The position numbers and the translations under genes are program-made. A stretch of DNA of 64,000 bases. Source: a bacterium. GTDB taxonomy: Bacteria; Krumholzibacteriota; Krumholzibacteriia; LZORAL124-64-63. Positions 1 through 45,895 of the stretch are shown one piece after another (position 1 is the first letter of the stretch; each line of letters begins with the position of its first letter). The DNA lies in the NCBI GenBank assembly GCA_024231905.1, contig JAAEQC010000102.1, forward strand, positions 234,974 to 298,973, in the 5' to 3' direction. Below the pieces are notes generated by a model. That model did not search any database, was not told the DNA's origin, and saw only the letters and a program-made list of their open reading frames with translations.

Positions 1-917
1 CGGACTCCCCGGCGGGAGCGGACGATGACGAGGCGGCCTCGGTTCTCGATGCGGCCGGCCGGCGGCAAGCACGGCGTCCCATCCCCGAGCCGCCGCTGCT
101 GGGCGAGGTGGACCGGGTGCGCGACGTGGTCCTGGAACAGGGGGTGGACCTGGTGGTCCTGACCCTGCCCTTCGACCAGCTGTCCCTGGTGCGGAAGGTG
201 GCCGCGGACCTGGCCAACCTCAATGTCGACCTGCAGTTCGTGCCGGACCTGTTTTCCCTCCACACCAGCCGCATGCGCCTGGAGGAGATTGCCGGCCTGC
301 CTTTCATCTCCGTGCGGGAGGAGGCCCTGGGCGGGGTCGACCGCGTGGTGAAGCGCACCTTCGACCTGGTGGCCACGGGTCTGGGACTGCTGCTGCTCTC
401 GCCGGCCCTGGCGGTGCTGGCCATGTTGGTGAAACTGTCCTCGCCAGGACCCGTCTTCTATCGCCAGGAGCGCATCGGGCGGGACGGTCACGAGTTCGCC
501 ATGGTCAAGTTCCGCACCATGCGCAGCGATGCCGAGGCGACCAGCGGTCCCGTGTGGACTGCCGAGGCCGACCCGCGTGTAACGGCGGTGGGGCGCGTGC
601 TGCGCCGGTACAGCCTGGACGAATTACCGCAGCTGTGGAACGTGCTGCGGGGGGACATGAGCCTGGTTGGGCCCCGGCCGGAGCGGCGGATCTTCGTGGA
701 GAAGTTCGCCCAGGAGATGCCGCGCTATTTCGAGCGCCACCGGGTACAGTCGGGCCTGACGGGCTGGGCGCAGGTCCACGGGTTGCGGGGCAACACCAGC
801 ATTGCCGAACGCACGTTGTACGACCTGCACTACATCGAGAACTGGTCATTGCTGCTGGACGTGAGGATCCTACTCATGACCATCCACCACGTGCTACGCG
901 GGGAGAACGCCTACTGA
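1..917 (+). CDS. Polyprenyl glycosylphosphotransferase (bacterial sugar transferase, WcaJ/Bac_transf family), 5'-truncated by window edge
   Basis: Frame is open from position 3 to the stop at 915-917. The translation contains a CoA-binding-like linker ([10 protein letters not shown]...), a TM helix ([14 protein letters not shown]), and the catalytic C-terminal domain with [10 protein letters not shown]..., FAMVKFRTM and [22 protein letters not shown]. The stop overlaps the next start (TGATG). Confidence 0.8.
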
Positions 918-1813
918 TGCCGACGCTGCGCGCATTCCTGGAGAACTTGCGTCCGCGCCAGTGGACCAAGAACCTGCTGCTCTTCGCGGGGGTCATCTTC
1001 GGCCAGCGGCTGGGGGAGGCCGGCTGCGTGGCGCGGGCGGCTGTGGGCGCGTTGGTCTTCTGCCTGGCCTCGGGCGCCATCTACGTCTTCAACGACATCG
1101 CCGACCGCGATCTGGACGCCCGGCATCCCTACAAGAAGCTGCGGCCGATCCCGTCGGGCCGTCTGCCCGTGGCCACGGCCGTACGGGCGGGGACGGCGCT
1201 GGTGGCGGTGGTGCTGGCGGCGGCCTTCTTGCTGGGCCCGCGCTTCGGCATGGTGGTGGCGGTCTTCTTCGCCTGGAACTGGCTGTACACTCAAGTGCTC
1301 AAGGGCATACCGATCCTGGACGTGACCGGCATCGGCATGAGCTTCGTGATCCGGGCCGTGGCCGGCGTCCTGGTGCTCGAGCCCACCTGTCCGGACGTGA
1401 CCATCTCGCCCTGGCTGTTGCTCTGCACCCTCTTCCTCAGTTTCTTTCTGGGGTTCGCCAAGCGCCGGGACGAGTTCCTGAAGATCCTGCCCGAAGGCGG
1501 CGATACGCGACCGGTCCTGCGCGGCTACACCGAGGCTATGCTGAACGCCCTGATCGGTATCAGTTTCGGTCTGACCTCCATGGCCTACGCCCTGTACACG
1601 GTCTGGCCCGACACGGTGGCCCACTTCGGCACCCGGGACCTGGTCTACACCCTACCCTTCGTGCTGGCGGGCATGGGCCGCTACCTGTACCTGGTCTACC
1701 ACGAGGGCCGGGGCGGGCGCCCCCACGAGATTCTCCTCAACGACTCGGTCCTGCAGGTGATCGTCCTCGGTTGGATCATCGCCGCGGTCCGCATCATCGG
1801 AGCCACGCCGTGA
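917..1813 (+). CDS. UbiA-family prenyltransferase, decaprenyl-phosphate phosphoribosyltransferase-like (Rv3806c-like)
   Basis: ATG at 917 overlaps the upstream stop. The protein is polytopic, with the UbiA Asp-rich motif NDIADRDLD (NDxxDxxxD) and a second motif KRRDEF. The long ORF 554..1813 begins in the upstream gene, so 917 is taken as the start. Confidence 0.75.
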   Translation: MPTLRAFLENLRPRQWTKNLLLFAGVIFGQRLGEAGCVARAAVGALVFCLASGAIYVFNDIADRDLDARHPYKKLRPIPSGRLPVATAVRAGTALVAVVLAAAFLLGPRFGMVVAVFFAWNWLYTQVLKGIPILDVTGIGMSFVIRAVAGVLVLEPTCPDVTISPWLLLCTLFLSFFLGFAKRRDEFLKILPEGGDTRPVLRGYTEAMLNALIGISFGLTSMAYALYTVWPDTVAHFGTRDLVYTLPFVLAGMGRYLYLVYHEGRGGRPHEILLNDSVLQVIVLGWIIAAVRIIGATP

Positions 1814-2811
1814 ATTCCCTGCGCAGCACAGTCGCCGTCGTCGAAGCCCGTCCCGAAACCGTCGCCGAGGATTATCGGCGCCTGCTGAAGTTGGCGGGCC
1901 TTGCCGCTGCTTCTCCGGACCGGAGGCTGGTGGCCGACGGGGCGCGCCCGGCGGGTTCCCGGGGCATCCCGGTCTCTCCGTCCCGGCAACTGTCGGCTGT
2001 CCTGGCCGGGGGCCAAGGTTGCGGCCCGGTCTTCGCCCTGGACGGATCCGGCCGCCCGGCGGGAACACCCGCCCCCTGGCGCGATGCCCTGGCGGCGGCG
2101 GGGACGGCCCTGGCCGACCCGGCGGCCTGGCAGTTGCGCCGCGCGGACGCGGGCGGATTGCGGGCCCTGACCGAAGCCCTGAAGGACGGACCACAATTGC
2201 CGCGGGACCTGGCCGGCGGACCGGTGCTGGTGACGGCCGGGCTCGGCGTCGGGGGCGGCTGGCCCGTCCTGGCGGGTGTGGAATTGCTGGCCCGCCTGGT
2301 GGCGCCGCCCCGGCTGCGCCGTCGCCGCTGCCGGGCCACCGGGGCGGAGGTAGTGGCGGAGTCCCTGGCTTTGGTGGCCCGTGAATGCCACATTGAGGGC
2401 ACGGTCATCGACGGTGTCCATTGGCACGTGCGCGCTGGCCGCTGGAAGCGCCGGACCCTGTTGGGCAACATCCTGCTGGCCGGCCGTGACCCGGTGGCCG
2501 TGGATGCAGTGGCCTGCCGGCTCGCCGGCGTGGACCCGCAACGGGTGCCCTGGCTCCGGTTCTGCGCCGAGCGCGGCCTGGGCCGGATCGATCCCGGACG
2601 CGTGGACGTGGTGGGTCGCTCGGACCTGCTCGAACCGGGCCTGGAACTGCCGCCGCGGCTGCTGGTGCCGGCGGGGGAGGGCCCCTGGCCAGGCGCCGGC
2701 GAGGGCGGCGGGTGGTGGCAACGGTTGCGGGTCCGGAGCGCCGCGCCGCGGGCTTCCGCCTGGGACGGCCTGGAGGTCGCTTCCGCTGCGGGCCGCAAGG
2801 AGGAACCATGA
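1810..2811 (+). CDS. DUF362 domain-containing protein
   Basis: GTG at 1810 overlaps the UbiA stop (GTGA). The N-terminus VNSLRSTVAVVEARPETVAEDYRRLLKLAGL is typical of DUF362. The stop at 2809-2811 overlaps the ispE ATG (ATGA). The upstream part of ORF 961..2811 is rejected as an alternate-frame overlap of UbiA. Confidence 0.55.
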   Translation: MNSLRSTVAVVEARPETVAEDYRRLLKLAGLAAASPDRRLVADGARPAGSRGIPVSPSRQLSAVLAGGQGCGPVFALDGSGRPAGTPAPWRDALAAAGTALADPAAWQLRRADAGGLRALTEALKDGPQLPRDLAGGPVLVTAGLGVGGGWPVLAGVELLARLVAPPRLRRRRCRATGAEVVAESLALVARECHIEGTVIDGVHWHVRAGRWKRRTLLGNILLAGRDPVAVDAVACRLAGVDPQRVPWLRFCAERGLGRIDPGRVDVVGRSDLLEPGLELPPRLLVPAGEGPWPGAGEGGGWWQRLRVRSAAPRASAWDGLEVASAAGRKEEP

Positions 2812-3746
2812 GCGACAAGAACTTCGTCAAGGGCCGTCGCCCCGCCGGGCGCCGGGTGACCCTGCGGGCCCCGGCCAAGGTGAACCTCCACCTGGAGGTG
2901 CTGCGGCAGCGCCACGACGGCTACCATGATATCGAGACCATCCTTCAGGCGGTGGGTCTTTTCGACCGGGTCACGGTCGAACTGGCCGAGGAGTACCAGG
3001 GCGGGGAGCCGGATCTGGCCCTCACGGTCTCCGGCGCCCGCGGTTCCGTGCCCACCGACGAGACCAACCTGGCCTGGCAAGCGGCCCGGCTTTTCTGCCG
3101 CGAGACGGGAGTTTCGGGCGCCCTGACCATCCACCTGGAGAAGGCGATTCCCGCCGCGGCGGGCCTGGGCGGAGGCAGCAGCGACGCGGCGGCGGTCCTG
3201 GTGGCGTGCGATCGCCTCTTCGGGACGGGACTCGAGGCGGACCGTCTGGAGCGCCTGGGGGCGGAGATCGGCTCGGACGTGCCATTCTTCGTCAAGGGCG
3301 GGACCGCCCTGGGTCGTGGACGCGGCACCATGCTGACCCAGCTGCCGTCGGTACGAACGGGACAATTCCTTATCGTTAAACCCGACTTGCAGTTGCAGAC
3401 TTCGGACGTATACGGCGCCCTGAAAATGGGATTGACAGTGAACAGCGCCACGGCTAACATCCAGGTGATCAGGCCGATGCTGTCCAGGTTCCCGCAGAAG
3501 ACGTGGCCCGGATTCAATCGGTTGGAGGATGTCGTGCTCCCGGCGCAGCCTGCCTTGCAGCGCCTGGTACTGGGATTACGCCAATTGGCACCGGTTGCCA
3601 TGCTGTCGGGGAGCGGAGCGGCGGTATTCGGCGTGTTTCCAGAGGGACGCGACCTCGCCGATCAAGCGGGGGAATTTGAGCAGACGGGGCTGTTCGTCCG
3701 AACAGTCGCGCCGCATCCGGGGGGAGTCGAGGTCCTGCAGGACTGA
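2808..3746 (+). CDS. ispE: 4-(cytidine 5'-diphospho)-2-C-methyl-D-erythritol kinase
   Basis: GHMP-kinase motifs: KVNLHLEV near the N-terminus and PAAAGLGGGSSDAAA as the ATP-binding loop. ATG at 2808 overlaps the upstream stop. Confidence 0.85.
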   Translation: MSDKNFVKGRRPAGRRVTLRAPAKVNLHLEVLRQRHDGYHDIETILQAVGLFDRVTVELAEEYQGGEPDLALTVSGARGSVPTDETNLAWQAARLFCRETGVSGALTIHLEKAIPAAAGLGGGSSDAAAVLVACDRLFGTGLEADRLERLGAEIGSDVPFFVKGGTALGRGRGTMLTQLPSVRTGQFLIVKPDLQLQTSDVYGALKMGLTVNSATANIQVIRPMLSRFPQKTWPGFNRLEDVVLPAQPALQRLVLGLRQLAPVAMLSGSGAAVFGVFPEGRDLADQAGEFEQTGLFVRTVAPHPGGVEVLQD

Positions 3747-3797: not shown

Positions 3798-4133
3798 TTG
3801 GAACTCACCGAGATCAGGATCACGTTGCGTGACGACAACAAGCTGAAGGGGTTCGCCAGTATCACGCTCGAGAATGCGTTCGTGATCAGGGGACTCAAGA
3901 TCATCGAGGGCGCCTCCGGACTGTTCATCGCCATGCCGAGCCGCAAGCGACGGGACGGGACGTTCCAGGACATCGCCCACCCGATCAACATGGAGACCCG
4001 GGAGTGGATGGAAAGCCAAGTCATCACCGCCTACCGGCGGGAACTCCAGCGGGTCGAGAACGGGGAGATACCCGCCCCGTCCAACTCTCTTCCCGGAGAC
4101 AACGAGGGCTCCGTGATGGAGGAGAGCTACTAG
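3798..4133 (+). CDS. spoVG: Septation protein SpoVG
   Basis: MELTEIRITL...KGFASITLENAFVIRGLKIIEG...FIAMPSRKRRDGTFQDIAHPIN is a canonical SpoVG. TTG start, with a GGGAGAA RBS 7 nt upstream. Confidence 0.9.
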   Translation: MELTEIRITLRDDNKLKGFASITLENAFVIRGLKIIEGASGLFIAMPSRKRRDGTFQDIAHPINMETREWMESQVITAYRRELQRVENGEIPAPSNSLPGDNEGSVMEESY

Positions 4134-4141
4134 AAGTTGTT

Positions 4142-4218
4142 TGGGGCGTAGTCAAGTGGTCTAAGACACAAGGTTTTGGTCCTTGCATCCGCAGGTTCGA
4201 ATCCTGCCGCCCCAGCCA
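4142..4218 (+). tRNA. tRNA-Gln (anticodon TTG)
   Basis: Manual cloverleaf: acceptor tggggcg/cgcccca, 3-bp D stem gtc/gac, anticodon stem caagg/ccttg with loop ttTTGgt, T arm gcagg-ttcgaat-cctgc, discriminator G, encoded CCA. It lies between spoVG and prs, as in many genomes. Confidence 0.85.
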
Positions 4219-4340: not shown

Positions 4341-5279
4341 ATGTACAATGCACTCGTGGTGATCGCCGGCACTGCCCACCCGACCATGGCCGAGGCCATC
4401 GCCCGGAACCTGGACATGGAACTGCTGGACGTGGAGGCGAGCCGTTTCTCCGACGGCGAGATCCAGATCAAGATCAAGGAGAACATCCGCGGCACAGACG
4501 TCTTCATCGTGCAGCCGACCATGCCGCCGGCGGAGCACATGATGGAGCTGCTGTTGCTGCTGGATGCGGTGCGGCGGGCGTCCTGTCGGCGGGTCACGGC
4601 GGTCATCCCGTACTTCGGTTACGCGCGGCAGGACCGCAAGGACCAGCCCCGGGTTCCCATCGGTGCGCGACTCATGGCCAATCTCATCACCAAGGCCGGC
4701 GCCGACCGCGTGCTGACCATCGACCTGCACGCGGCCCAGATCCAGGGCTTCTTCGACATCCCCCTGGACCACCTCTACTCGGCGCCCGTGCTGCTGAAGC
4801 ACTTCGAGGACCGTCCGCGGGAGAACCTGGCCGTGGTCGCCCCGGACGTGGGTTCCATCAAGATGACGCGCGCCTTCGCCAAGCGCCTGGACGCCAGCCT
4901 GGCCATCATCGACAAGAGGCGGCCCCGTCCCAACGAGGCGGTGGTCATGAACTTCATCGGCGACGTGGCCGGCAAGGACGTCATCATCTTCGACGACATG
5001 ATCGACACCGCCGGCACCTTGACCGATGCGGCCCGCGTCTGCGTCGAGGAACAGGGCGCCAACTCGGTGACCGCCTGCTGCACTCACCCGATTCTCTCGG
5101 GGCGGGCCCTGGAGAGGCTCAACGCCTCGCCCATCCAGGAAGTCGCCGTCAGTAACACGATTCCCTTCGATCGCTTCGACGAATGTCCGAAAATCACAGT
5201 CCTGGACATGGCGCCGCTGCTGGCCGAGGCCATCGAGCGGATCCACCTGGAGAAGACAGTCAGCGAGCTCTTCCGGTAG
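4341..5279 (+). CDS. prs: Ribose-phosphate pyrophosphokinase (PRPP synthetase)
   Basis: MYNALVVIAG...FSDGEIQIKI... is a canonical Prs, with the PRPP-binding loop DDMIDTAGT. GGAGGA RBS 10 nt upstream of ATG 4341. Confidence 0.9.
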   Translation: MYNALVVIAGTAHPTMAEAIARNLDMELLDVEASRFSDGEIQIKIKENIRGTDVFIVQPTMPPAEHMMELLLLLDAVRRASCRRVTAVIPYFGYARQDRKDQPRVPIGARLMANLITKAGADRVLTIDLHAAQIQGFFDIPLDHLYSAPVLLKHFEDRPRENLAVVAPDVGSIKMTRAFAKRLDASLAIIDKRRPRPNEAVVMNFIGDVAGKDVIIFDDMIDTAGTLTDAARVCVEEQGANSVTACCTHPILSGRALERLNASPIQEVAVSNTIPFDRFDECPKITVLDMAPLLAEAIERIHLEKTVSELFR

Positions 5280-5495: not shown

Positions 5496-6251
5496 ATGGG
5501 TCTCGTGAATCTGAACATCCATCCCCGGTCGACCACCGGCAAGAACGCCAATCGCCGCACCCGCGCCGCGGGTCGCGTGCCGGCCATCGTCTACGGCAAG
5601 GACCGTGAGACGGCCATGGTCGAGCTAGACACCCAGTCCTTCACGGTGGCGCTCAGCCACCTGGGTGGCCGCGCAGCCATCTTCAATCTCGAGCAGGAAG
5701 GCGTCGATGAAGAGCACATCGCCCTGATGCGCGAGGTCCAGCGGAACCCGGTGACCGACGAGATCCTCCACGTGGATCTGATGGAGATTCCCCGCGGCGT
5801 CGACGTTACCGTGGCCGTCTCGGTCGAGGTCGTCGGTGAGCCGCCGGCCGCCGTGAAGAACGGCGAGGGCTCGGTGGCCCTGTCCCTGGACGCCATCGAG
5901 ATCAGCTGCCGCCCCAGCCAGCTGCCCGAGTGCATCGAGGTCGACATCAGCGAACTCGAGCTCAACGACAAGATCTTCGTGCGTGACGTGACCACCCCCG
6001 TGGGTGAGATCATCACCGACGAGGACATGCTCGTGCTGAACATCAAGCCGGCAATCATCTACGTCGAGGAAGAGGAAGAGGAAGAGGGCATCGAGGGCGA
6101 AGAGGGTGCCGAGGGCGAGGAAGGTGCCGAGGGTACCGAGGGCGAAGACGGCGACGCCGCCAAGGGCGAGGACAAGGACAAGGACAAGAGCAAGGACAAG
6201 AGCAAGGACAAGAGCAAGGACAAGAGCAAGGACAAGAAGTCCGGCGACTGA
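5496..6251 (+). CDS. rplY: 50S ribosomal protein L25 / general stress protein Ctc, with a long acidic then KDKS-repeat C-terminal tail
   Basis: MGLVNLNIHPRSTTGKNANRRTRAAGRVPAIVYG... is an L25/Ctc fold. GGAGGA RBS 9 nt upstream of ATG 5496. About 60 C-terminal residues are low-complexity (EEEEEEEGIEGEEGAEG..., then KDKSKDKSKDKSKDK). Confidence 0.85.
   Translation: MGLVNLNIHPRSTTGKNANRRTRAAGRVPAIVYGKDRETAMVELDTQSFTVALSHLGGRAAIFNLEQEGVDEEHIALMREVQRNPVTDEILHVDLMEIPRGVDVTVAVSVEVVGEPPAAVKNGEGSVALSLDAIEISCRPSQLPECIEVDISELELNDKIFVRDVTTPVGEIITDEDMLVLNIKPAIIYVEEEEEEEGIEGEEGAEGEEGAEGTEGEDGDAAKGEDKDKDKSKDKSKDKSKDKSKDKKSGD
6171..6239 (+). repeat. In-frame tandem repeat: 12-nt unit AGCAAGGACAAG x4 flanked by GACAAG hexamers, encoding (KDKS)n
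   Basis: Direct perfect tandem copies are visible in the sequence, inside the rplY 3' end. Confidence 0.8.
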
Positions 6252-6336
6252 TCCTCGCACCCATGGCATGCCATCCGGACAGCCGGCCGCGCTCCGTGGC
6301 CGGCTGTCTGCGTAGGTGACGGAGAAGGCGAACGTG

Positions 6337-6993
6337 ATGACGCAGCTGAGGCTCGTGGTTGGACTGGGCAACCCGGGGGCGGAGTACGCCGCCCACCGCC
6401 ACAACGTGGGCTTCGGCGTGGTTGGCGAGGTCGCTCGCCGCCTGGGAGTGGACTTCACGGTCGGCGGCAGCGGGACCTGGGCCGTGGCGGCGGCCGAACC
6501 GCTGGTCCTGGTCAAACCCCTGACGTACATGAACCGCAGCGGCGAGGCGCTGACGGCCTGGGCCCGGGCGGCCGGGGTTCGGCTGGACGCTCGCCCGGAA
6601 ACACCTCCGGCAGATCCCCTGGACGAAGTCCCGCCGCCGGAGCCCGGTTTGCGTCCCCTGGTAGTGTGCGACGACCTGGCTCTGCCTCTGGGTTCGCTCC
6701 GCTTGCGGCCCCGCGGCAGCAGCGGCGGCCAGAACGGTCTGGGCGACATAATCGACGAACTGGGGGGCGAGGAATTCCCGCGCCTGAGACTGGGCATTGC
6801 TCCTCTTGCAGGTGACTTGGACCCGGCCGTATGGCCGGATTTCGTCCTGGAATCCTTCGCCCCGGAGGAACGGGAGGAAGCCGCGGACCTGGTAGTCCGG
6901 GCGGCCGACGCGGTGGAGAACTGGGCGGTCCAGGGCCTCTCCGACACGGTGAATCGCTACAACCGCCGGGTCCGCCGCCCGGCGGAAGACTGA
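6337..6993 (+). CDS. pth: Peptidyl-tRNA hydrolase
   Basis: MTQLRLVVGLGNPGAEYAAHRHNVGF and ...YMNRSGEA... are canonical Pth. GGAGAAGG RBS upstream of ATG 6337 (an alternative GTG lies at 6316). A Pro-rich insertion PETPPADPLDEVPPPEPGLRP is present relative to typical Pth. Confidence 0.85.
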   Translation: MTQLRLVVGLGNPGAEYAAHRHNVGFGVVGEVARRLGVDFTVGGSGTWAVAAAEPLVLVKPLTYMNRSGEALTAWARAAGVRLDARPETPPADPLDEVPPPEPGLRPLVVCDDLALPLGSLRLRPRGSSGGQNGLGDIIDELGGEEFPRLRLGIAPLAGDLDPAVWPDFVLESFAPEEREEAADLVVRAADAVENWAVQGLSDTVNRYNRRVRRPAED

Positions 6994-11815: not shown

Positions 11816-11852
11816 CCCTCCCCCCGGGCGACCGGGACGAGGAGGGTAATCG

Positions 11853-12260
11853 ATGAGGAAGCCATTCTTGATGTGTGCCCTGGCGGTGCTCCTGGCGGCT
11901 CTCCCCTGCGGGAGCGCCGGGGCCGCCGAGGCGGACAGCGTGCGCGTGGACCTGGTCTTCGGCACGGACGTGGACCGCGAGACCCGCGACATCGTCGGCG
12001 AGGCTGTGTTCTTCGCCCCCGACGTGGAGCGGGTCTTCTGCATGACACGGGTGTGGGGTCTGGCGGGCGATACCAGCGTGACCCACGCCTGGTACCACGA
12101 AGGCGAGACCAAGGCCCGGGTGGATCTGCCCGTGTTCGGCGGGCACTGGCGGACTTGGTCGTCCAAGCTCATCCTGCCGGCCTGGACCGGGGCCTGGGAG
12201 GTCAAGGTGCTGGACGCCGACGGCTCGGTGCTCGCTTCCGCATCTTTCGAGATTCGCTGA
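11853..12260 (+). CDS. Small secreted hypothetical protein (signal peptide; possibly DUF2914-like)
   Basis: N-terminal MRKPFLMCALAVLLAALPCGSAGA signal, GGAGGG RBS, 135 aa, compact coding. Confidence 0.5.
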   Translation: MRKPFLMCALAVLLAALPCGSAGAAEADSVRVDLVFGTDVDRETRDIVGEAVFFAPDVERVFCMTRVWGLAGDTSVTHAWYHEGETKARVDLPVFGGHWRTWSSKLILPAWTGAWEVKVLDADGSVLASASFEIR

Positions 12261-32414: not shown

Positions 32415-32420
32415 CGGTTC

Positions 32421-37987: not shown

Positions 37988-39108
37988 GACTGCTGGCCCT
38001 CAACTGGCGGGACATCAACGACCCCCTCGGCGGCGGGGCCGAGTTGCACCTGCACAAGATCCTCGCGGGGGCTGTCCAGGCGGGCTGGCACGTGGACCAG
38101 GTCTGCTGCACCTACGAAGGGGCGGAAGCGGCCGAGACGGTGGATGGGATCCACATCCACCGCCGGGGCCACTGGTCCGTGGCCAACTTCGTTCTGCCCG
38201 GGGTGGTGCGCGGCCTGCTCAAGGAGCACCGCTACGACCTGCTCCTGGAGGACATCAACAAGCTGCCCTTCTACACCCCCCTGTACAGTGGCGGCGTGCC
38301 CGTGCTGGCGGTGGTCCCGCACCTCTTCGGCACCACCGTGTACCGGGAGGCCAACGCGGTGCTGGCGTCCTACGTCTGGCTGGCCGAGCAGCTCATTCCA
38401 CCGGTCTACCGGAACGTGGACTTCGAGGTCATCAGTCCCTCCACCCGGGACGACCTGATCGCCCGCGGCCTGGACGGCGATCGCATCCGCACCGTCTACT
38501 GCGGCCTGGAGCACGAACGTTTCGCACTGGCGGACCCGCCGCCGCGTTCGGCGACGCCCCTCGTGGTTTGCTGGAGCCGCCTGCGCCGCTACAAGAGCAC
38601 CGACGTGGCCATCCGGGCCTTCGCGCGCATCCACCGGGAACTGGCCGACGCCCGTATGCTGGTCATGGGACGGGGGCCGGACGAGGAACGTTTGCGCAAG
38701 CTGGTGACCAAGCTCGGCCTGGACGACGTGGTGGACTTCCATGGCTTCATGCCCTGGGAAGAGCTCGTGGGCCATCTGCACCGGGCCCACGTCTTCCTCA
38801 ACCCGAGTCCCAAGGAGGGCTGGGGCCTGACCGTGGTCGAAGCCAACGCCTGCGGTCTGCCCGTGGTGGCCAGCGACCGGCCGGGGCTGAAGGACTCGGT
38901 GCGCGACGGGGAGACCGGCGACCTGGTGCCCTACGCCGACGACGCAGCCTTCGCCGCCAAGGCCCTCGAACTGCTGCGCGATCCGGAGCTGTGGCGGCGC
39001 CGCAGCGAGGCAGCCCGCGCCTGGGCCCGCACCTTCAGCTGGGAGCGTTGTGCCCAGGAATCCCTGGAGATCTTCGACCAGGTGGCAACCCGGGGGGCGC
39101 AGTCGTGA
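37897..39108 (+). CDS. Glycosyltransferase family 4 (retaining, GT-B)
   Basis: C-terminal EX7E-type motif (EGWGLTVVEANACGLPVVASD...GETG). The only canonical in-frame start is GTG 37897, which overlaps the methyltransferase 3' end by 91 nt, so the start is uncertain. Confidence 0.7.
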   Translation: MAPVVRHQETLAVHHADHRGGGSQTGGEVLRLLALNWRDINDPLGGGAELHLHKILAGAVQAGWHVDQVCCTYEGAEAAETVDGIHIHRRGHWSVANFVLPGVVRGLLKEHRYDLLLEDINKLPFYTPLYSGGVPVLAVVPHLFGTTVYREANAVLASYVWLAEQLIPPVYRNVDFEVISPSTRDDLIARGLDGDRIRTVYCGLEHERFALADPPPRSATPLVVCWSRLRRYKSTDVAIRAFARIHRELADARMLVMGRGPDEERLRKLVTKLGLDDVVDFHGFMPWEELVGHLHRAHVFLNPSPKEGWGLTVVEANACGLPVVASDRPGLKDSVRDGETGDLVPYADDAAFAAKALELLRDPELWRRRSEAARAWARTFSWERCAQESLEIFDQVATRGAQS

Positions 39109-40100
39109 AGCGGATCCTGGGCTTCCTGGCCAAGAGCGTGGTGAGCGGCGGTCTCATCTGGTACCTGCTCGCGCAAAGGCTCTCCCTCGACGACGTCACC
39201 GACGCGGTGGCCTCTCCCCGCTGGGGTTGGCTGGTGGCAGCCATGGTGGTCTACGGCCTGTCGGCCTTCGGGGGCGCCCTGCAGTGGTCCTGGCTGCTGC
39301 GGACGGCGGGGATCCGCGCCGCCGGCAGCGAGATCCGCCGTCTCTACTTCATCGGGCTCTTCATCAATAATTTCCTGCCGGCCAACGTGGGCGGGGACGC
39401 CTGGAAGATTGTCGATCTGGGCCGCCAGGAACAGCGCTCCTTGGGGGTCTTCTGCGCCACGCTCCTGGACCGCCTGCTCGGGTTGACGGCCCTGACCCTG
39501 CTGGCGGTGCTGGTCCTGCTGGGCGCCAGCGGCATCGGCGTACCCTTGCCGCGGACCGCCCTGTGGCTCGTGGCGGCATTGGGATTGTTGGGGGGCGGAC
39601 TGGCATTCCTGCTGTCCCGGCGTCTGGGACGCCTGTTGCCGGCCACCGCCCTGCGCTTCGGCTGGCAGAAGGGCGCGGCACGGCTGGCCCGGATCACGGG
39701 CGAATTCTCCCGCTATCGGGAGCGGGTCGCCTGGCTGAACGGCATCCTGGCCTTCAGCGTCGGCGTCCAGTTCATGCGCATGGCCACCCACGTGCTGGTG
39801 GCCTGGGGACTGGGTTTCGAACTGACCTTCGAGCAGGTGGTGCAGCTCTTCGTGCTGGTCCCGTTGCTGGCCATCAGCCTCACCCTGCCCATCGCCATCA
39901 ACGGCATCGGCCTGCGCGAATCCGTGTCGGCGAACCTGCTCACCTGGGCGGGCCTGGCCGCGCCCCAGGCCGTGGCCATGGAAGTGGCCGCCTTCCTGGT
40001 CCAGGTGATCTTCAGCCTGCAGGGCGGCGTGTTGCTCTGGCTGGGCCGGTGGCGTCGTCGAGACCCCGTAGCAGAGGAGTCGCGGAACTCCGCCGGGTGA
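39105..40100 (+). CDS. Flippase-like / lysylphosphatidylglycerol-synthase-TM-region-like membrane protein (UPF0104)
   Basis: Polytopic, roughly 8 TM helices, with motif FINNFLPANVGGDAWKI. GTG overlaps the GT4 stop (GTGA). The upstream part of ORF 37890..40100 is rejected as an alternate-frame run-on. Confidence 0.6.
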   Translation: MKRILGFLAKSVVSGGLIWYLLAQRLSLDDVTDAVASPRWGWLVAAMVVYGLSAFGGALQWSWLLRTAGIRAAGSEIRRLYFIGLFINNFLPANVGGDAWKIVDLGRQEQRSLGVFCATLLDRLLGLTALTLLAVLVLLGASGIGVPLPRTALWLVAALGLLGGGLAFLLSRRLGRLLPATALRFGWQKGAARLARITGEFSRYRERVAWLNGILAFSVGVQFMRMATHVLVAWGLGFELTFEQVVQLFVLVPLLAISLTLPIAINGIGLRESVSANLLTWAGLAAPQAVAMEVAAFLVQVIFSLQGGVLLWLGRWRRRDPVAEESRNSAG

Positions 40101-40181
40101 TTGTTGTTGCCCGGGAGGCCGTGTGTTAGCTTGGGCCGGTCCGAGGCCCTTTGGAGTCATCAGAGAGACGATCCGGGTACC

Positions 40182-42932
40182 ATGGAACCGCTGTTGAACC
40201 GGCTGCGCCGGCCCCACATCCTCATCGCCGCCGGCGTCTTCGCCCTCACCTTGGGCGTGTACGTCACCACTCTCGGACCCACCATGGAGTTCTGGGACTG
40301 TGGCGAATTCATCACCACCAGCCACATCGTCGGCATCCCGCACCAGCCGGGTACGCCCATGTACGTGCTCATGGGGCGCGTCTTCGACGTGATCTTCGGC
40401 AGTCCACAGATCGACGAACCCGCCTTCCGCACCGCCTGGGCCCTGAACTTCATGTCGGCCTTCTTCAGCGCGTTGGCGGTGACCTTCGTCTTCCTGCTCA
40501 TCCGCGACCTGGCCCGGCGGGCCGACCCGGACGTCAAGTGGCTGCCCGAACTGGGCGGCGTGGTGGGCGCCCTTTTTCTGGCCTTCAGCCAGACCTACTG
40601 GAACAACGCCATCGAGGCGGAGGTGTACGGCCTGTCGGCCTTCATGCTGGCGGTGCTCTCCTGGCTGGCCGTGCGCTGGTACGACCACCGAGACCACGAT
40701 TCCAGCAACCACCTGCTCTTCCTTATGATCTACTTGCTGGGCCTGGGCGTGGGCTTCCACCTGGGCAGCGTGCTGGTCTATCCCGGCGTCTTCCTCATGG
40801 TGCTGCTGGCCAGCCGCCGCCAGTTGCCGGTCCTGGACCTCTTCCTCATGAGCGCCGGCCTGTTCGTTTTCCTGCTCTCGACCACGACCCGGGACAACGG
40901 CCTGGTCCTGCTGCTGCTCCTGGCGTACGCGGTGGTCGTGGGCGTGCGCGCCATGCAGGGCCATCGCTTCGCCCTGGTGGGCAGCGCCCTGTTCTTCGTG
41001 GGTCTGACCGTGCACGTCATGATGCTCGTGCGCGCTGGCGCCAACCCGGAGCCCCTGATCAACCAGACCGATCCGGACAACTTCGCCGCTCTCATGACCG
41101 TGATCCGGCGCGAGCAGTACCCGCCCCTGAACCCTTTCCAGCGGCAGGCGGACCTGGGCTGGCAGTACGGCTACTACTACGGCTTCCTGTTCAAGCAATT
41201 CTACTTCCTGGGCCCGGGCCACGGCCTGCTGACCGTGGTGACGACGGTGCTGGGTCCCATCTTCCTGGCCCTGGTGGGGCTCTTCCACGGGGTGCGGCGT
41301 CTCTTCCCGCTGGTGCTGATCCCCCTGGCCGGCTACCTCTTCAACGGCGAGATCCTCACCCTCTACCTGAATTTCACAGACCACGAAGTGCGCGAGCGCG
41401 ACTACTTCTATTTCGCGGCTTTCCTGTTCATGGCGGTCTTCATCGGACTGGGTGCCGCGGCGCTCATGCGCTACGCCCAGGGCGGGGAGGGCAAGAGCGC
41501 GGACCAGGTTGAGCGGGACGACGCCGACTGGCGCCGGGTGGTGCGCGCGACTCCCAGGTGGTCCGTATGGCTGGTTGCCGGAGTGCTGTTGGTAGCGGCG
41601 TTGCTACCCATAGCGCCGGGTAGCGTCAAGTACTGGGAGCACGACCGCTCCGAGAACCATCTGGCCTACGACTACGCCTGGAACATCCTGGCCGGGCTGG
41701 ACGAGAACGCCATCATCTTCACCAACGGGGACAACGACACCTTCCCCATCTGGTATCTGCAGATGGTGGAGAAATTCCGTACGGACGTGACGGTGGTGAA
41801 CCTCTCCCTGGTGAACCTGCCCTGGTACATCAAACAGCTCCGCTACCATCACGGCCTCGAGTTTTCCCGCACGGACGAAGAGGTGGACCGCCTGCGCCAC
41901 CGCATGTTCGAGGACCCGGAAACCGGGCAACGCGAACTGGTCATGATCAAGGACTACGTCGTACACGACATCATCACCACCAACCTGAGCCAGGTCGGAC
42001 GGCCCCTCTTCTTCGCTGTGACCATCCCGCAGGACAACATGAAGCGCTACTTCGCCAACCTGCGCATGGAGGGCATGGCCTACCGGCTGGTGCGGGAGAC
42101 CGCCCCGGACAACCTGCCCACCACCAACGCCGATAAGGTCATGGAGAACATGCTGGGCGTGTACCGGCTGGATTCGGTGCAGTCCGGCGATTCCGAAGAG
42201 CGCCAGCGCCGCTACGCCGCCATGGCCGGCCGTGCCTCCGACGACGGCACGATCATTCTGGGCCGGCCGGGCAAGCGGCTGAGCGCCGCGGACATGGCCG
42301 ACCTGGCCGCCGGTCTGGGCCAGCGCCGCCGGGACACCTTCCGCAGCATCAACGCCCGCCACCTGCTGGGCAACTATCCCACGGCATTCAACCGGGCGGG
42401 CTTCGACTTCATCCAGCAGTCCGAGCTGGTGGCCGAGACCGACTCGGTGGCCTACCGGGAATTGCTGGCCAAGGCGGCGACGGCCTTCGAGGCGAGTCTG
42501 GCCTTGGAGCCGTTCAACGACCACGCCATGGACTTCTACCCCCTGTTGCTGGTGCAGCTCTATCGGGACGACGACGCCCGCGACTTCCTGATCTCCCTGC
42601 GCGGCAACGTGGACGAGGCGCTGGAGGAGCAGATCATCTTCCGCACCTTCCAGGGACTGATCCAGGGCGGGTTGTCGCCCATCGCCCTGGGCTGGGCCCG
42701 CCAGTGGCGGCAGGACGATCCCGGGCGGGGTTTCTATTACATGCTCGAGTTCCGTCTCTACGAAGCCATGGACGAGCTGGCGGCCGCCAGTGCTATCGCC
42801 GACGAGTGGGCGACCGTGGACGGCGCACGCAACGCAGAGATGGACCGGTCCCTGGCCGAGATGCAGCAGCGGGCTCGGGCGCGGGATCTGGAGAACGTAC
42901 CGGCAACCGGCGGAGGCACTGATGGACAGTAG
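40182..42932 (+). CDS. DUF2723-family GT-C fold membrane glycosyltransferase (protein-O-mannosyltransferase-like / TMEM260-like) with a C-terminal helical repeat domain
   Basis: N-terminal polytopic region with the conserved FWDCGEFITTSHIVGIPHQPGTPMY segment and about 11 TM helices, followed by a large soluble C-terminal domain. Start placed at MEPLL (40182). Confidence 0.65.
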   Translation: MEPLLNRLRRPHILIAAGVFALTLGVYVTTLGPTMEFWDCGEFITTSHIVGIPHQPGTPMYVLMGRVFDVIFGSPQIDEPAFRTAWALNFMSAFFSALAVTFVFLLIRDLARRADPDVKWLPELGGVVGALFLAFSQTYWNNAIEAEVYGLSAFMLAVLSWLAVRWYDHRDHDSSNHLLFLMIYLLGLGVGFHLGSVLVYPGVFLMVLLASRRQLPVLDLFLMSAGLFVFLLSTTTRDNGLVLLLLLAYAVVVGVRAMQGHRFALVGSALFFVGLTVHVMMLVRAGANPEPLINQTDPDNFAALMTVIRREQYPPLNPFQRQADLGWQYGYYYGFLFKQFYFLGPGHGLLTVVTTVLGPIFLALVGLFHGVRRLFPLVLIPLAGYLFNGEILTLYLNFTDHEVRERDYFYFAAFLFMAVFIGLGAAALMRYAQGGEGKSADQVERDDADWRRVVRATPRWSVWLVAGVLLVAALLPIAPGSVKYWEHDRSENHLAYDYAWNILAGLDENAIIFTNGDNDTFPIWYLQMVEKFRTDVTVVNLSLVNLPWYIKQLRYHHGLEFSRTDEEVDRLRHRMFEDPETGQRELVMIKDYVVHDIITTNLSQVGRPLFFAVTIPQDNMKRYFANLRMEGMAYRLVRETAPDNLPTTNADKVMENMLGVYRLDSVQSGDSEERQRRYAAMAGRASDDGTIILGRPGKRLSAADMADLAAGLGQRRRDTFRSINARHLLGNYPTAFNRAGFDFIQQSELVAETDSVAYRELLAKAATAFEASLALEPFNDHAMDFYPLLLVQLYRDDDARDFLISLRGNVDEALEEQIIFRTFQGLIQGGLSPIALGWARQWRQDDPGRGFYYMLEFRLYEAMDELAAASAIADEWATVDGARNAEMDRSLAEMQQRARARDLENVPATGGGTDGQ

Positions 42933-43968
42933 GGAACGGACGGAGATCGTCGCTGGGCTGCCCGACACGGTGCGGCGGATCCTGGCCCCGGGGACGCCGG
43001 TGGTGGTCACCGGTTGCGCCGGCTTCATCGGCAGTTCCCTGACCGAGGTCCTGCTGGAGGCGGGTTGTGCGGTCACGGGGGTCGACTGCCTCACCGACTA
43101 CTACGACCCGGCCCAGAAACTCGAGCACATGGCCGGTTTCGCCGACCATCCGGACTTTACCTTCGTGCGCAAGGACCTGAACGACCTGGATGCCGAGGAA
43201 CTCCTGCGCGGCAAACGCGCCGTCTTCCACCTGGCCGCCCAGGCCGGGGTGCGCGCCAGCTGGGGCCGGACCTTCGACGACTACGTGGCCTTCAACATCA
43301 CCGCCACCCAGCGCCTGCTCGAGGCCTGCAAGGCACCGGATGTGGCCGCCGACCTGGTGCGCTTCGTCTACTCGAGCAGCAGCTCCGTCTACGGCGATCA
43401 GCCGGAATTGCCGGTCACGGAGAAGGCGCTGCCCCAGCCGCGCTCCCCCTACGGCGTGACCAAGATGGCCGCCGAGCACCTGAGCGTGCTCTACGCCATG
43501 AACTACGGCGTGCCCACCAGCAGCCTGCGCTACTTCACGGTCTACGGTCCCCGCCAGAGGCCGGACATGGCCTTCCGCAAGTACATCGAGGCGGCCCTGG
43601 ACGGCCGCGTCTTCCAGGTGTACGGCGACGGTGGCCAGACCCGCGACTTCACCTACGTGGGCGACGCCGTGCGCTCCAACCTCCTGGCCGTGGCCTGCGA
43701 CGAGCCTTGGGGGGTCTTCAACACCGGCGGCGGCAGCCGGGTGGCCTTCGGCGAAACCCTGGACCTGCTGCAGGAGATCCTGCGCGAGCGCGTGCCGGGT
43801 CTGGAAGCTACCGTCGAATACACCGAGACCGCCCGTGGCGACGTCCGCGACACCTTCGCCGACCGGGCCCACGTGGAAGCGGCCATCGGCTACAAGCCCA
43901 CCGTGGGTATGGCCGAGGGTCTGGCCCGCGAAGTGGACTGGGCCATGGCCAGGAGGCGTCAGGCATGA
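42922..43968 (+). CDS. NAD-dependent nucleotide-sugar epimerase/dehydratase (SDR family)
   Basis: Rossmann motif VVVTGCAGFIGSSL and catalytic YGVTK (YxxxK). Overlaps the upstream stop by 11 nt. Confidence 0.8.
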   Translation: MDSRERTEIVAGLPDTVRRILAPGTPVVVTGCAGFIGSSLTEVLLEAGCAVTGVDCLTDYYDPAQKLEHMAGFADHPDFTFVRKDLNDLDAEELLRGKRAVFHLAAQAGVRASWGRTFDDYVAFNITATQRLLEACKAPDVAADLVRFVYSSSSSVYGDQPELPVTEKALPQPRSPYGVTKMAAEHLSVLYAMNYGVPTSSLRYFTVYGPRQRPDMAFRKYIEAALDGRVFQVYGDGGQTRDFTYVGDAVRSNLLAVACDEPWGVFNTGGGSRVAFGETLDLLQEILRERVPGLEATVEYTETARGDVRDTFADRAHVEAAIGYKPTVGMAEGLAREVDWAMARRRQA

Positions 43969-44915
43969 GCGAGGGCGCAGGAAACACCGTACGCAGCGAC
44001 ATCGCCGTGGTGGTGCCCGCCTTCGACGAAGCCGAGTCCCTGCCCGAACTGGTGGAGCGCATCGCCGCGGCCATCGACGCCATGGGCCGGACCTGGGAGG
44101 TGTGGATCGTCGACGACGGTTCCGCTGACGGGACCTTCGCCGTGGTGGAGCGCTTGGCCCAGGATCGTCCGCAGGTCCACGGCCTCAGCTTCGGTCGCAA
44201 CTTCGGCAAGGCGGCGGCCCTGGCCGCGGGCTTCGAGGCCGCGTCGGCTGAACTCGTCGTCACCATGGACGCCGACCTCCAGGACGACCCGGCGGAGATC
44301 CCCCACCTGGTGGCCAAGCTGGAGGAGGGCTGGGACCTGGTCTCCGGCTGGAAGCAGGACCGCCAGGACAGTTTCATCAAGAACAACACCAGCAAGATCT
44401 TCAACTGGTTCACCAGCCGCATGTGCGGGCTCAAGCTCCACGACTTCAACTGCGGCCTGAAGATCTATCGCCGCCAGGTGACTGAACGGGTCAAGCTGTA
44501 CGGCGAGATGCACCGCTACGTGCCGGCCCTGGCCCACCTGGACGGCTTCCGGGTAGCCGAACTGCCGGTGAGGCACGCGGCCCGCAAGTACGGCTCCACC
44601 AAGTACGGCATGGCCCGCTTCATTAACGGTTTCCTGGATCTGCTGACGGTGTATTTCCTGCACGCGCGCCGCACCTCGCCCCTGCATTTCTTCGGGCGCG
44701 GAGGCATGACCTTCCTGGGTGCCGGCGGGGCGATCAGTCTCTATTTCCTGGCCTGGTGGCTCATGGGCCACGGCCTGCGCGTGCGTCCGGTCCTCGTGCT
44801 CGGACTGGTGTTCATCATCGTGGGTTTCCAGTTCATCAGCCTGGGCCTCATCGCCGAACTGGTGGTATCCGGGCGCCATCCCGAAACCGCCTACCGCATA
44901 GCCCGGCGTGTCTGA
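43965..44915 (+). CDS. GT2 polyprenol-phosphate glycosyltransferase (GtrB/ArnC/CsbB-like, membrane-anchored)
   Basis: VVVPAFDEAESL...VDDGSADGT...DADLQDDP are DXD motifs. Two C-terminal TM helices. ATGA overlap with the epimerase; AGGAGG RBS. Confidence 0.8.
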   Translation: MSEGAGNTVRSDIAVVVPAFDEAESLPELVERIAAAIDAMGRTWEVWIVDDGSADGTFAVVERLAQDRPQVHGLSFGRNFGKAAALAAGFEAASAELVVTMDADLQDDPAEIPHLVAKLEEGWDLVSGWKQDRQDSFIKNNTSKIFNWFTSRMCGLKLHDFNCGLKIYRRQVTERVKLYGEMHRYVPALAHLDGFRVAELPVRHAARKYGSTKYGMARFINGFLDLLTVYFLHARRTSPLHFFGRGGMTFLGAGGAISLYFLAWWLMGHGLRVRPVLVLGLVFIIVGFQFISLGLIAELVVSGRHPETAYRIARRV

Positions 44916-45840
44916 ACGGCGCTGCATCCCCGACCGCCGCCAGGGTTTGCCCCCCCTGGTGGCCCTGGTCGTCAACTGGAATGGACGCGACGTCCTGCCC
45001 GAATGCCTGGCCTCCCTCCAGGACGGAGGCTATCCCGGTCTCAGGGTGCTGGTGGTGGACAACGGCTCCGTCGACGACTCGGTGGCCTGGACCCGCGAAC
45101 ACCACCCGGAATGCGAGATTCTCGAGACCGGCCGCAACCTGCGCTGGGCCGGCGGCAACAACGCGGGACTCCGTTACCTGGCTGATGGGGGATACGAGGG
45201 CCACGTCCTGCTCCTGAACAATGACACGGTAGTCCCCGAGGGTAGCCTGCGGCGCCTGGTGGTGGCCCTGGACGCCAACGAGGAGGCCTGGGCGGCCACA
45301 CCACGCATCTGCTACGCCCACGACCCGGCCAGGGCCTGGTACGACGGCGGCACTGTGGGCCGGTGGAGCGGCTGGGTGCGCCATGCGGGGATCCGCAAAT
45401 TGACGGGCAAGCTGCGCATGGAAGAACGCTACGTGGACTGGGGGACCGGCTGCGCCCTGCTGCTGTCCCCGGGGGCCCTGGACGCAGTGGGCGAGTTGGA
45501 CGAGGAGTTCCACTTCTACGGCGAGGACACGGACTACTCCCTGCGCATCACCGCGGCCGGGGGCCGCATCCTGCACGTGCCGCGCTCCCTGGTCCTGCAC
45601 AAGGTGAGCGCCTCGGTGGGCGGGACCACTCCCCTGAAGCTGTGGCTGCGTAGCCGCAGCCATTTGCGCCTGCTGCGCAAGCACTGGCCCGCGCGCAGTT
45701 GGCCCGTGCTGATTCCCCTGCAGGTGGGCTACCTGGCGGGCCACGCGGGCTGGCAATTGTGGCACGGCCGGCCCGAGGCGGCCTGGGCTGTGTGGCAGGG
45801 GGTCCTGGACGAATTGAGGGGCCGGCCCTACGTGGGCTGA
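44908..45840 (+). CDS. Glycosyltransferase family 2
   Basis: LVALVVNWNGRDVL...VVDNGSVDDS...FYGEDTDYSLR is a GT2 rhamnosyltransferase-like fold. GTG start overlaps the upstream stop. Confidence 0.7.
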   Translation: MSERRCIPDRRQGLPPLVALVVNWNGRDVLPECLASLQDGGYPGLRVLVVDNGSVDDSVAWTREHHPECEILETGRNLRWAGGNNAGLRYLADGGYEGHVLLLNNDTVVPEGSLRRLVVALDANEEAWAATPRICYAHDPARAWYDGGTVGRWSGWVRHAGIRKLTGKLRMEERYVDWGTGCALLLSPGALDAVGELDEEFHFYGEDTDYSLRITAAGGRILHVPRSLVLHKVSASVGGTTPLKLWLRSRSHLRLLRKHWPARSWPVLIPLQVGYLAGHAGWQLWHGRPEAAWAVWQGVLDELRGRPYVG

Positions 45841-45895
45841 GGTTTACAGGTGCGCGCCGTCAGTGGTATCATGGTAGCTGAACAACGACAATGAC

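Follow-up and report, generated by a model that had tools for sequence, protein, structure and literature searches.

A predicted polyprenyl-phosphate phosphoribosyltransferase and its decayed DUF362-family partner in a conserved gene row of Krumholzibacteriota

Introduction

In a stretch of 64,000 nucleotides from a bacterium of the Krumholzibacteriota (GenBank assembly GCA_024231905.1, contig JAAEQC010000102.1, positions 234,974 to 298,973 of the forward strand; hereafter the window), the first 3.75 kb hold four plus-strand genes, encoding in this order a phosphoglycosyltransferase (PGT), a UbiA-superfamily membrane enzyme, a DUF362-like protein and the isoprenoid-precursor kinase IspE. An initial annotation, made from the sequence alone, took these genes, together with the phosphoribosyl pyrophosphate (PRPP) synthetase gene prs downstream, as signs of a lipid-linked phosphoribose or arabinose donor pathway similar to the mycobacterial decaprenylphosphoryl-arabinose (DPA) route. 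What does the UbiA enzyme make, and do its neighbours serve the same pathway? Taken as a whole, the explanation that we consider fairly probable is that the UbiA protein is a polyprenyl-phosphoribose synthase (PPPRS), that the DUF362-like protein is its decayed partner, and that ispE and prs stand nearby through ancient synteny.

Lipid-linked pentofuranose donors outside the actinobacteria have already been published (Kelly et al. 2024, PMC11127046), and the non-actinobacterial context is therefore not the novelty it was first taken for. What this analysis adds is the placement among housekeeping genes, the pairing with DUF362 and the decay of that partner, and the link to isoprenoid kinases; the general concept is not new.

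Results

The UbiA gene (917..1813, plus strand) encodes a protein of 298 aa that is predicted to be a PRPP:polyprenyl-phosphate 5-phosphoribosyltransferase of the Rv3806c/PPPRS type. The protein matched Pfam PF01040 with 82 bits and passed NF008977, the model for decaprenyl-phosphate phosphoribosyltransferase, with 246.5 bits against a cut-off of 234, and its sister models were not reached (NF008978, 189 versus 207 bits; NF008976, 137 versus 474 bits). The HAD-UbiA fusion model NF006088 was covered only at model positions 191-447, the protein being a UbiA domain alone. Models for haem O synthase, UbiA (4-hydroxybenzoate), MqnP, DGGGPS and chlorophyll synthase gave 16-48 bits, and the sole PDB matches at E<=0.01 were to Rv3806c (8j8j and 8j8k), the alignment with 8j8j running end to end (UbiA residues 8-289 versus 18-294, E 2.9e-31). 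Judged by these family models and PDB matches, the protein does not belong with the prenyltransferases for quinones or haem. The first assignment, to an enzyme resembling decaprenyl-phosphate phosphoribosyl synthase, is thus upheld by the NF008977 score, by Rv3806c as the sole PDB relative and by the conserved contacts given below, the quinone and haem models, which mark the group it might have clustered with instead, scoring far below NF008977 (16-42 bits). The NCBI pipeline already annotates the protein as decaprenyl-phosphate phosphoribosyltransferase-type.

From the cryo-EM structures of Rv3806c (PMC10994848), 13 residues in contact with PRPP, Mg2+ or decaprenyl phosphate were taken and compared in an alignment of 86 homologues together with Rv3806c. 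Ten of them are identical in the window protein (R12, K18, Y56, N59, D63, K73, R76, Y124, K129 and K182, which correspond to R22, K28, Y70, N73, D77, K87, R90, Y138, K143 and K191 of Rv3806c), and these ten are preserved in 83-86 of the 86 homologues. Two more are replaced conservatively, Q135 of Rv3806c by N (N121 in the window protein) and Y157 by F (F143), and a Phe at the position of Y157 also occurs in some mycobacteria (PMC10994848). The thirteenth, K208, is changed to P, with the adjacent R207 invariant. Given that the phosphoribose-binding residues of Rv3806c are not common to other UbiA enzymes (PMC10994848), their conservation argues specifically for PRPP use. On sequence grounds, the UbiA protein is most likely an Rv3806c-type polyprenyl-phosphate phosphoribosyltransferase.

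The gene that follows (1810..2811, plus strand, GTG start) encodes a DUF362-family protein of 333 aa, which is degenerate, the LarA-like fold being kept and the conserved polar motifs lost. Pfam DUF362 (PF04015) matched the protein with 27.2 bits (cut-off 24) at positions 129-200 only of the 200 in the hidden Markov model (HMM), and gave no match in three of its relatives. When the window clade was aligned with intact DUF362 proteins using hhalign, the match extended over the full length (328 columns, probability 100%, E 5e-40). Only 40 of the 152 invariant columns of intact DUF362 are kept in the window protein, and none of the invariant His (0/8), Lys (0/3), Thr (0/8), Ser (0/4), Tyr (0/5) or Cys (0/1) residues is among them. 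Within the window clade itself, an alignment of 41 sequences showed invariant R5, D21, R24, D201, W205, D227, D232 and W318, and no invariant Lys or His. Scores against the intact-family HMM are bimodal, with 640-739 bits for intact copies and 23-130 bits for the window clade. These comparisons show, at the level of sequence, that the window gene descends from an intact, conserved DUF362 enzyme and that the partner has decayed; the initial annotation was right to call DUF362 uncharacterised and overlooked that this copy has lost the motifs of its family.

Intact DUF362 genes were found beside the same UbiA clade. They follow the UbiA homologue in deep-branching 'Krumholzibacteriia' (L023, L025, L027 and L030) and in Rokubacteria/Methylomirabilota (L060 and L065), and L017 carries an intact copy (10920-12029) at the window's own locus, in the same PGT-UbiA-DUF362-ispE order. 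The intact proteins match Pfam positions 2-200 with 79-86 bits and contain the motifs KLNLSWTKYFP, ENKTVVT, KTHGHS..KNAFGGLLKEVRHYAH..IHE and GDGAGP, which are not met in the window protein. A search with this subfamily gave 7372 matches at E<=1e-10, the top 120 being at least 77% identical to the L060 protein. Three further intact-DUF362 contexts (L086, L087 and L088) were picked solely for the length of sequence available, and in all of them a UbiA gene adjoins the intact DUF362 gene or lies within 1.5 kb. PMT/PMT_2 glycosyltransferases of the GT-C type and family 2 glycosyltransferases (GT2) lie beside UbiA-DUF362 in L086 and L087, the latter also with LPG_synthase_TM, and L088 has a WecA-type PGT, a GT4 and epimerases of the short-chain dehydrogenase/reductase (SDR) type. 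A literature search found no published function for DUF362, and we know of no earlier consistent genomic partner of this family. The pairing of UbiA with intact DUF362 suggests a role for the latter in processing lipid-linked pentose, as a phosphatase or an epimerase.

This raises an alternative for the window protein, namely that it is still active as the missing 5-phosphatase or lipid-linked pentose epimerase, with a remodelled site, and is made stoichiometrically with UbiA by translational coupling. The open reading frame (ORF) is conserved in >40 database clusters with the eight invariant residues, its dN/dS against L001 is 0.31, below 1, a LarA-like two-domain fold is confidently predicted, the GTGA and ATGA overlaps described below are in place, and intact relatives always stand beside the same UbiA. 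We nevertheless consider continued activity unlikely, given the loss of all those invariant polar and Cys residues, the large internal deletions in the protein of several relatives, and eight Eisenbacteria-labelled loci that retain rmlD-(gmhA)-UbiA-ispE without the gene, which is also absent from L057. The gene moreover evolves about twice as fast as its neighbours (dN/dS of 0.17 for UbiA, 0.13 for PGT, 0.14 for IspE, 0.11 for Prs and 0.05 for SpoVG), yet under purifying selection, and its homologues are 33-67% identical, compared with 66-87% for UbiA across >100 database clusters. PDB sequence and profile searches with the protein, the clade profile and the intact-family profile gave chance-level matches only. 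The window DUF362-like protein is probably a non-catalytic accessory or a relic, as its residue pattern indicates, and is still under some selection.

Upstream of UbiA, the window contains the 3' 304 codons (3..917, plus strand) of a large polyprenyl-phosphate PGT with CoA_binding_3 and Bac_transf domains (Pfam Bac_transf, 234.9 bits). The 5' end lies beyond the window edge; relatives have 505-512 aa, the full-length L001 orthologue 512 aa. Its earlier description as WcaJ-type fits only in a broad sense: the protein passes TIGR03025 (EPS_sugtrans; 387.7 bits, cut-off 295.55) and stays below the WcaJ equivalog TIGR03023 (378.9 bits, cut-off 410.75), the query being a fragment cut by the window edge. 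A fixed link between PGT and UbiA was not borne out, as the GT4-PGT pair is absent between gmhA and UbiA in many relatives.

The last of the four genes, ispE (2808..3746, plus strand), encodes a 4-diphosphocytidyl-2-C-methyl-D-erythritol kinase of 312 aa (TIGR00154, 201.3 bits, cut-off 138.7; Pfam GHMP_kinases_N). The GC content of the window is ~70%, and codon-position GC (third position) backs each of the four frames, weakly for the DUF362-like gene (GC3 ~0.85, GC1 ~0.82), where composition alone fits an antisense ORF equally well. That ORF (1696..2721) was ruled out as a real gene by the plus-strand homology and the Pfam match. The UbiA and DUF362-like starts are those of database proteins that have the same sequence and the same length (P0001, 298 aa; P0121, 333 aa), and both N-termini are consistent with the homologue alignment; the overlaps at these starts are thus not a product of misassigned start codons, a caveat attached to them at first. 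The 3' third of ispE (window 3330-3600) has a GC3 of ~0.77, compared with ~0.87 earlier in the gene. A sigma-70-like TTGACA-17-TAACAT lies there at 3432-3460, the sole match in 7.2 kb and ~340 nt upstream of spoVG; it could be an internal promoter, with the count of matches at chance level.

Read from the sequence, PGT and UbiA meet in a TGATG (915..919, plus strand) with a 1-nt overlap between TGA 915-917 and ATG 917-919. UbiA and the DUF362-like gene overlap by 4 nt in a GTGA (1810..1813, plus strand; GTG 1810-1812, TGA 1811-1813), and the DUF362-like gene and ispE by 4 nt in an ATGA (ATG 2808-2810, TGA 2809-2811) that forms, with a Shine-Dalgarno sequence (AAGGAGG 2798-2804), a plus-strand junction at 2798..2811. 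Hence the four genes, first described as linked by 4-nt overlaps, have the content and order given then, and two of the three overlaps are of that length, the TGATG being 1 nt. The overlaps recur in the closest relative, L001, including the TGATG arrangement of PGT and UbiA; L004 and L007 have the same gene order, but gaps of ~7-80 nt instead of overlaps. A promoter and terminator scan found no terminator-like site above chance level between the four genes. According to a window-wide count based on GC-frame gene calls made for this analysis, ~12 of ~40 same-strand junctions overlap, 9 of them by 4 nt, and ~0.5 runs of three overlapping junctions are expected per window. Since overlaps are this common in the window, three in a row are unremarkable; the chaining of the four genes is not above chance expectation and is not notable. 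The 1- and 4-nt overlaps would be a consequence of the usual compaction of operons in a genome of 70% GC.

Do the four genes then form a functional unit at all? They might simply be neighbours in a compact housekeeping array, with overlaps by default and roles in unrelated processes, which would agree with the frequency of overlaps in the window and their lack of conservation across the phylum, with the optional GT4-PGT pair and with a gene row that runs on into ribosomal protein genes. We hold this to be quite unlikely, however, given that UbiA and DUF362 are found together again in phyla and genomic settings that are unrelated, and that the UbiA clade is found beside two non-homologous kinds of initiating PGT (Bac_transf and a WecA/MraY-type fusion) and beside isoprenoid kinases of two pathways.

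The four genes are followed on the same strand by spoVG (3798..4133; Pfam SpoVG 106.6 bits; NF009749 108.7 bits, cut-off 108), tRNA-Gln(TTG) (4142..4218; ARAGORN; Rfam RF00005 63.6 bits), the ribose-phosphate diphosphokinase gene prs (4341..5279; NF002320 436.5 bits), the gene for ribosomal protein L25/Ctc (5496..6251; TIGR00731 142.4 bits) and the peptidyl-tRNA hydrolase gene pth (6316..6993; TIGR00447 139 bits). The prs start at ~4341 lies 595 bp after the ispE stop, close to the 600 bp first given, and spoVG and tRNA-Gln, which went unmentioned then, lie in between. Most relatives of the two proteins, UbiA and DUF362-like, carry the label Krumholzibacteria or Krumholzibacteriia, and the row in these genomes is recA-recX-rmlD-gmhA-like-[GT4-PGT]-UbiA-DUF362-ispE-spoVG-prs-L25-pth-rpsF-rpsR-DUF2232-rplI-manC, with GT4-PGT optional. 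The window region appears to be the upstream part of this long housekeeping and envelope gene row, kept across Krumholzibacteriota-like genomes. E. coli K-12 has lolB-ispE-prs...pth-ychF without such a UbiA, and the B. subtilis row reads ispE-purR-yabJ-spoVG-glmU-prs-ctc-spoVC. Given that E. coli has the row without this UbiA, prs near ispE is generic synteny and uninformative on PRPP use. Its proximity had been read as pathway evidence, which the E. coli row and the Chloroflexi UbiA homologues without prs within 10 kb do not allow. Both ispE and prs would be present through ancient synteny and not for PRPP channelling.

Several features of this row were recorded besides. The C-terminus of L25/Ctc (6080-6251) has a long acidic tail and then (KDKS)n repeats (EEEEEEEGIEGEEGAEGEE...KDKDKSKDKSKDKSKDKSKDKK), and Pth, of 225 aa, matches its models in two stretches and has a Pro-rich insertion (about ...RPETPPADPLDEVPPPEPGLRP...). 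UbiA has an rmlD-type reductase gene (TIGR01214, 260-278 bits) on its upstream side across the Krumholzibacteriota-like and Eisenbacteria-labelled loci, in most cases together with a gmhA-like SIS_2 gene; the rmlD-type region spans 1243-2756 in L001, 7501-9081 in L004 and 9065-9907 in L038. Three upstream candidates for further steps were set aside, the first two not firmly. The RmlD as pentose epimerase passes its own equivalog cut-off and is more simply a rhamnose gene, and the gmhA-like SIS protein as pentose isomerase is more simply a heptose gene, C1-linked ribose being incapable of aldose-ketose isomerisation. PgpA, farther upstream in relatives, was dropped as specific evidence for a phosphatase, pgpA-cinA-recA being a common gene row.

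A complete mycobacterial-type DPA route would go from polyprenyl-P-ribose-5-P through dephosphorylation and 2'-epimerisation to polyprenyl-P-arabinofuranose for use by an arabinosyl-GT-C, with prs supplying PRPP locally. Pfam scans covered most genes of the window, the few others corresponding, in gene order or N-terminal sequence, to ribosomal or housekeeping genes. The scanned genes included none of the DprE1 (FAD_binding_4) or DprE2 (adh_short) type, no phosphatase of the PAP2 or HAD families and no GT-C of the Emb/Aft type. At the window locus itself, no HAD phosphatase gene adjoins UbiA and no HAD domain is fused to it, and no flippase or GT-C (GT136) is encoded within 1-7 kb. Distant candidates in the window are LPG_synthase_TM (39105-40100), GT-C-like proteins and a Wzx/MurJ-like protein (56298-57611). 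A census in other phyla, which took in 114 ORFs lying up to ~3.3 kb from the UbiA homologue at 19 loci, gave EamA (7), members of the small multidrug resistance (SMR) family (5), extended-SDR epimerases (4), divergent PAP2 (3) and LPG_synthase_TM (2), and the DprE1 and DprE2 families were not among the 25 commonest.

Published systems of this kind work with a phosphatase, a flippase, a GT-C enzyme and optional epimerases; those for arabinofuranose carry DprE1/E2 in the same locus and those for ribofuranose need none (PMC11127046). With no DprE1/E2 at the locus, a ribofuranose (or SDR-epimerised) donor is more likely than an arabinose donor. The arabinose or DPA-type pathway proposed initially is thus not supported by the window scans or by the commonest census families. 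It can draw on the Rv3806c-like UbiA, on prs 595 bp downstream of ispE and on the existence of non-actinobacterial arabinofuranose systems (PMC11127046); but the prs adjacency is generic and absent from the Chloroflexi loci, neither FAD_binding_4/ALO (DprE1) nor a classical SDR (DprE2) appeared among the window genes scanned or in those census families, published systems would have them in the locus (PMC11127046), and an Emb/Aft-type GT-C was not detected. We therefore rate the complete route as very unlikely.

The position of UbiA next to an isoprenoid kinase recurs more widely. The UbiA clade stands immediately upstream of an isoprenoid GHMP kinase in organisms of the methylerythritol phosphate pathway (IspE) and of the mevalonate pathway (mevalonate kinase). 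At 25 Chloroflexi/Anaerolineae loci, a mevalonate kinase gene comes directly after the same UbiA clade, with tlyA divergent upstream; in L069 (9998-11793), for example, UbiA matched NF008977 with 285 bits and the mevalonate kinase matched TIGR00549 with 260 bits (cut-off 163). Six of these pairs were checked. At five (L055, L062, L069, L073 and L085), a 4-nt overlap joins the stop codon of UbiA to a GTG or ATG in frame with the kinase, which is consistent with a GTGA/ATGA kinase start (site at 10861-10870 in L055 and at 10861-10870 in L073); the overlap is not present in L048. At Paenibacillus-type loci, an ArnF-like SMR protein adjoins the UbiA homologue. Our literature search found nothing on a UbiA-mevalonate kinase pairing or on Krumholzibacteriota envelopes. 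The adjacency suggests co-expression of a polyprenyl-phosphate consumer with lipid-carrier supply. That UbiA is itself an isoprenoid-lipid enzyme, for example one that prenylates a precursor of quinones, haem or ether lipids, would explain why it stands immediately before IspE in the Krumholzibacteriota-like and Eisenbacteria-labelled loci and before mevalonate kinase in the 25 Chloroflexi loci, but this is most improbable, given the 16-48 bits of the corresponding models against 246, the conservation of the Rv3806c-specific ribose 5-phosphate residues and the pyrophosphate K/R cluster, and the fact that polyprenyl phosphate is itself an isoprenoid, so that co-expression fits a phosphoribosyltransferase.

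Farther along the window, a plus-strand glycan cluster extends over 38044..49250 (with an adjoining GT2 to 51382) and holds, according to Pfam, GT4, LPG_synthase_TM, GT-C, SDR, GT2 and YfhO-like genes. After LPG_synthase_TM (39105-40100) come a TMEM260-like/DUF2723 GT-C of 916 aa (40182-42932), an SDR epimerase/dehydratase that overlaps it (42922-43968), two GT2 genes, one at 44007-44915 with 44% identity to the GT2 beside UbiA-DUF362 in L087, a weakly matching YfhO-like membrane protein of 846 aa (45992-48532) and a DPM1-like GT2 (48537-49250), all on the plus strand; the adjoining GT2 has a CoA_binding_3 domain (49247-51382). The 38-49 kb cluster could be a candidate consumer of lipid-linked donors, the link being weak.

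The remaining observations concern other parts of the window. An FMN riboswitch (32274-32416; Rfam RF00050, 114.5 bits) precedes a ribD-ribE-ribBA-ribH operon (32478-36039), followed by a DinB-family gene and nusB, an ordinary arrangement. ARAGORN called a minus-strand tRNA-Ser(GCT) at 22856-22944, inside and antisense to an SMC-like ORF of 1282 aa (20691-24539); Rfam at its gathering threshold does not report it, and the call is probably a false positive. The selA gene (17542-18966; L-seryl-tRNA(Sec) selenium transferase, 378 bits) points to the use of selenocysteine; the next gene (19084-20619) has a SPOR domain and is not selB. 'Two-component regulator propeller' repeats occur in two large proteins, at 26940-30689 (minus strand) and 51412-53787 (plus strand), the former a hybrid histidine kinase with PAS, HisKA, HATPase and receiver domains. 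An ORF of 423 aa (25662-26933) has good coding statistics and no Pfam match. Near the window's end lies the start of a dcw cluster (58861-63907), with rsmH/mraW (58861-59781), a PASTA-containing FtsI-like penicillin-binding protein (60315-62423) and murE (62414-63907).

Discussion

We propose that the UbiA protein uses PRPP to load ribose-5-phosphate onto a polyprenyl phosphate (presumably undecaprenyl phosphate) at the cytoplasmic face of the membrane, a step predicted from its conserved active-site residues, and that the product would be polyprenyl-P-ribofuranose-5-P. By analogy with the published systems, this lipid might then be dephosphorylated and flipped to serve as donor for a GT-C glycosyltransferase, which would add a pentofuranose (in the simplest case ribofuranose) to a glycan of the envelope. 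The DUF362 partner, having lost the conserved His, Lys, Ser, Thr and Tyr in the window lineage, would take part as a non-catalytic accessory or persist as a relic.

Several points weigh against this proposal. The NF008977 cut-off is exceeded by only 12 bits, and the UbiA protein is only ~30% identical to Rv3806c. The genes beside the window UbiA include neither a phosphatase for the phosphoribose (PRP of the HAD type, or PAP2) nor a flippase or GT-C, so that the downstream pathway is conjecture, and the cluster with the candidate GT-C lies at a distance of 36 kb. Our searches covered the 64-kb window, and genes for DprE1/E2 or for an SDR epimerase may be present elsewhere in the genome; a conserved rmlD-type SDR does lie upstream of UbiA in relatives. 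The tight coupling of UbiA to IspE or mevalonate kinase is unexplained by a role in glycan donor synthesis. Finally, in view of its purifying selection, kept fold and translational coupling, the DUF362-like protein may retain an activity or have gained one.

A bolder version of the proposal is possible and is offered tentatively. Intact DUF362 would be an unrecognised pentofuranose-donor enzyme, a 5-phosphatase or a new epimerase; PPPRS would be a core housekeeping enzyme in Krumholzibacteriota, Eisenbacteria, Methylomirabilota and Chloroflexi, co-expressed with an isoprenoid-precursor kinase; and the window DUF362 would be a pseudoenzyme acting as an accessory subunit of the synthase.

If the proposal is true, lipid-linked phosphoribose donors would belong to conserved, housekeeping envelope synthesis in several poorly known phyla, beyond mycobacteria and O-antigen decoration. 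DUF362, a large family without an assigned function, would gain its first consistent genomic partner, and intact and decayed DUF362 at the same locus offer a natural comparison to guide biochemistry. The repeated pairing with IspE or mevalonate kinase hints at a coordinated supply and use of the lipid carrier. For annotation, prs beside ispE is generic synteny and should not be taken as pathway evidence.

Among known systems, the nearest to the UbiA protein is Rv3806c of M. tuberculosis (PDB 8j8j and 8j8k; PMC10994848). The two share the UbiA-type fold and a similar length (298 versus 302 aa), and the window protein keeps the N-D-x-x-D motif for Mg2+, the K/R cluster for pyrophosphate, the residues for the 5-phosphate and the lysine for the lipid phosphate. 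Unlike Rv3806c, the window gene is not in an arabinan locus, and Rv3807c-type PAP2, DprE1/DprE2 and Emb/Aft are not nearby; its acceptor is presumably undecaprenyl phosphate instead of decaprenyl phosphate, and Q135, Y157 and K208 are replaced by N, F and P.

The DUF362-like protein is comparable to the LarA superfamily (DUF2088; clan CL0471, which also holds DUF362), whose members are nickel-pincer-nucleotide 2-hydroxyacid racemases and epimerases. The predicted model of the window protein has the same two-domain LarA-like fold, but the identity is ~10%, and the window clade is without an invariant Lys or His to tether or coordinate the nickel-pincer cofactor.

At the level of gene order, the window agrees with the ispE-prs-(ctc)-pth neighbourhood of other bacteria, having ispE, spoVG, prs, L25/Ctc and pth in this order on one strand, and differs from it in that UbiA and the DUF362-like gene are, in the window lineage, inserted directly upstream of ispE and overlap.

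The three-component pentofuranose systems (Citrobacter youngae O1/O2; PMC11127046) consist of PPPRS with a PRP phosphatase, a MATE/SMR flippase, a GT136 GT-C and an optional SDR or DprE1/E2. They resemble the window locus in having a PRPP-dependent polyprenyl-phosphoribose synthase as the first type of enzyme and in being non-actinobacterial, and the likeness extends to the UbiA homologues followed by an ArnF-like SMR in Paenibacillus-type loci and to the intact-DUF362 loci with GT-C and GT2. The window UbiA, in contrast, has neither a fused HAD phosphatase nor an adjacent flippase or GT-C, and its gene lies in a phylum-wide housekeeping row instead of a variable O-antigen locus, next to a DUF362-family partner that is absent from those systems.

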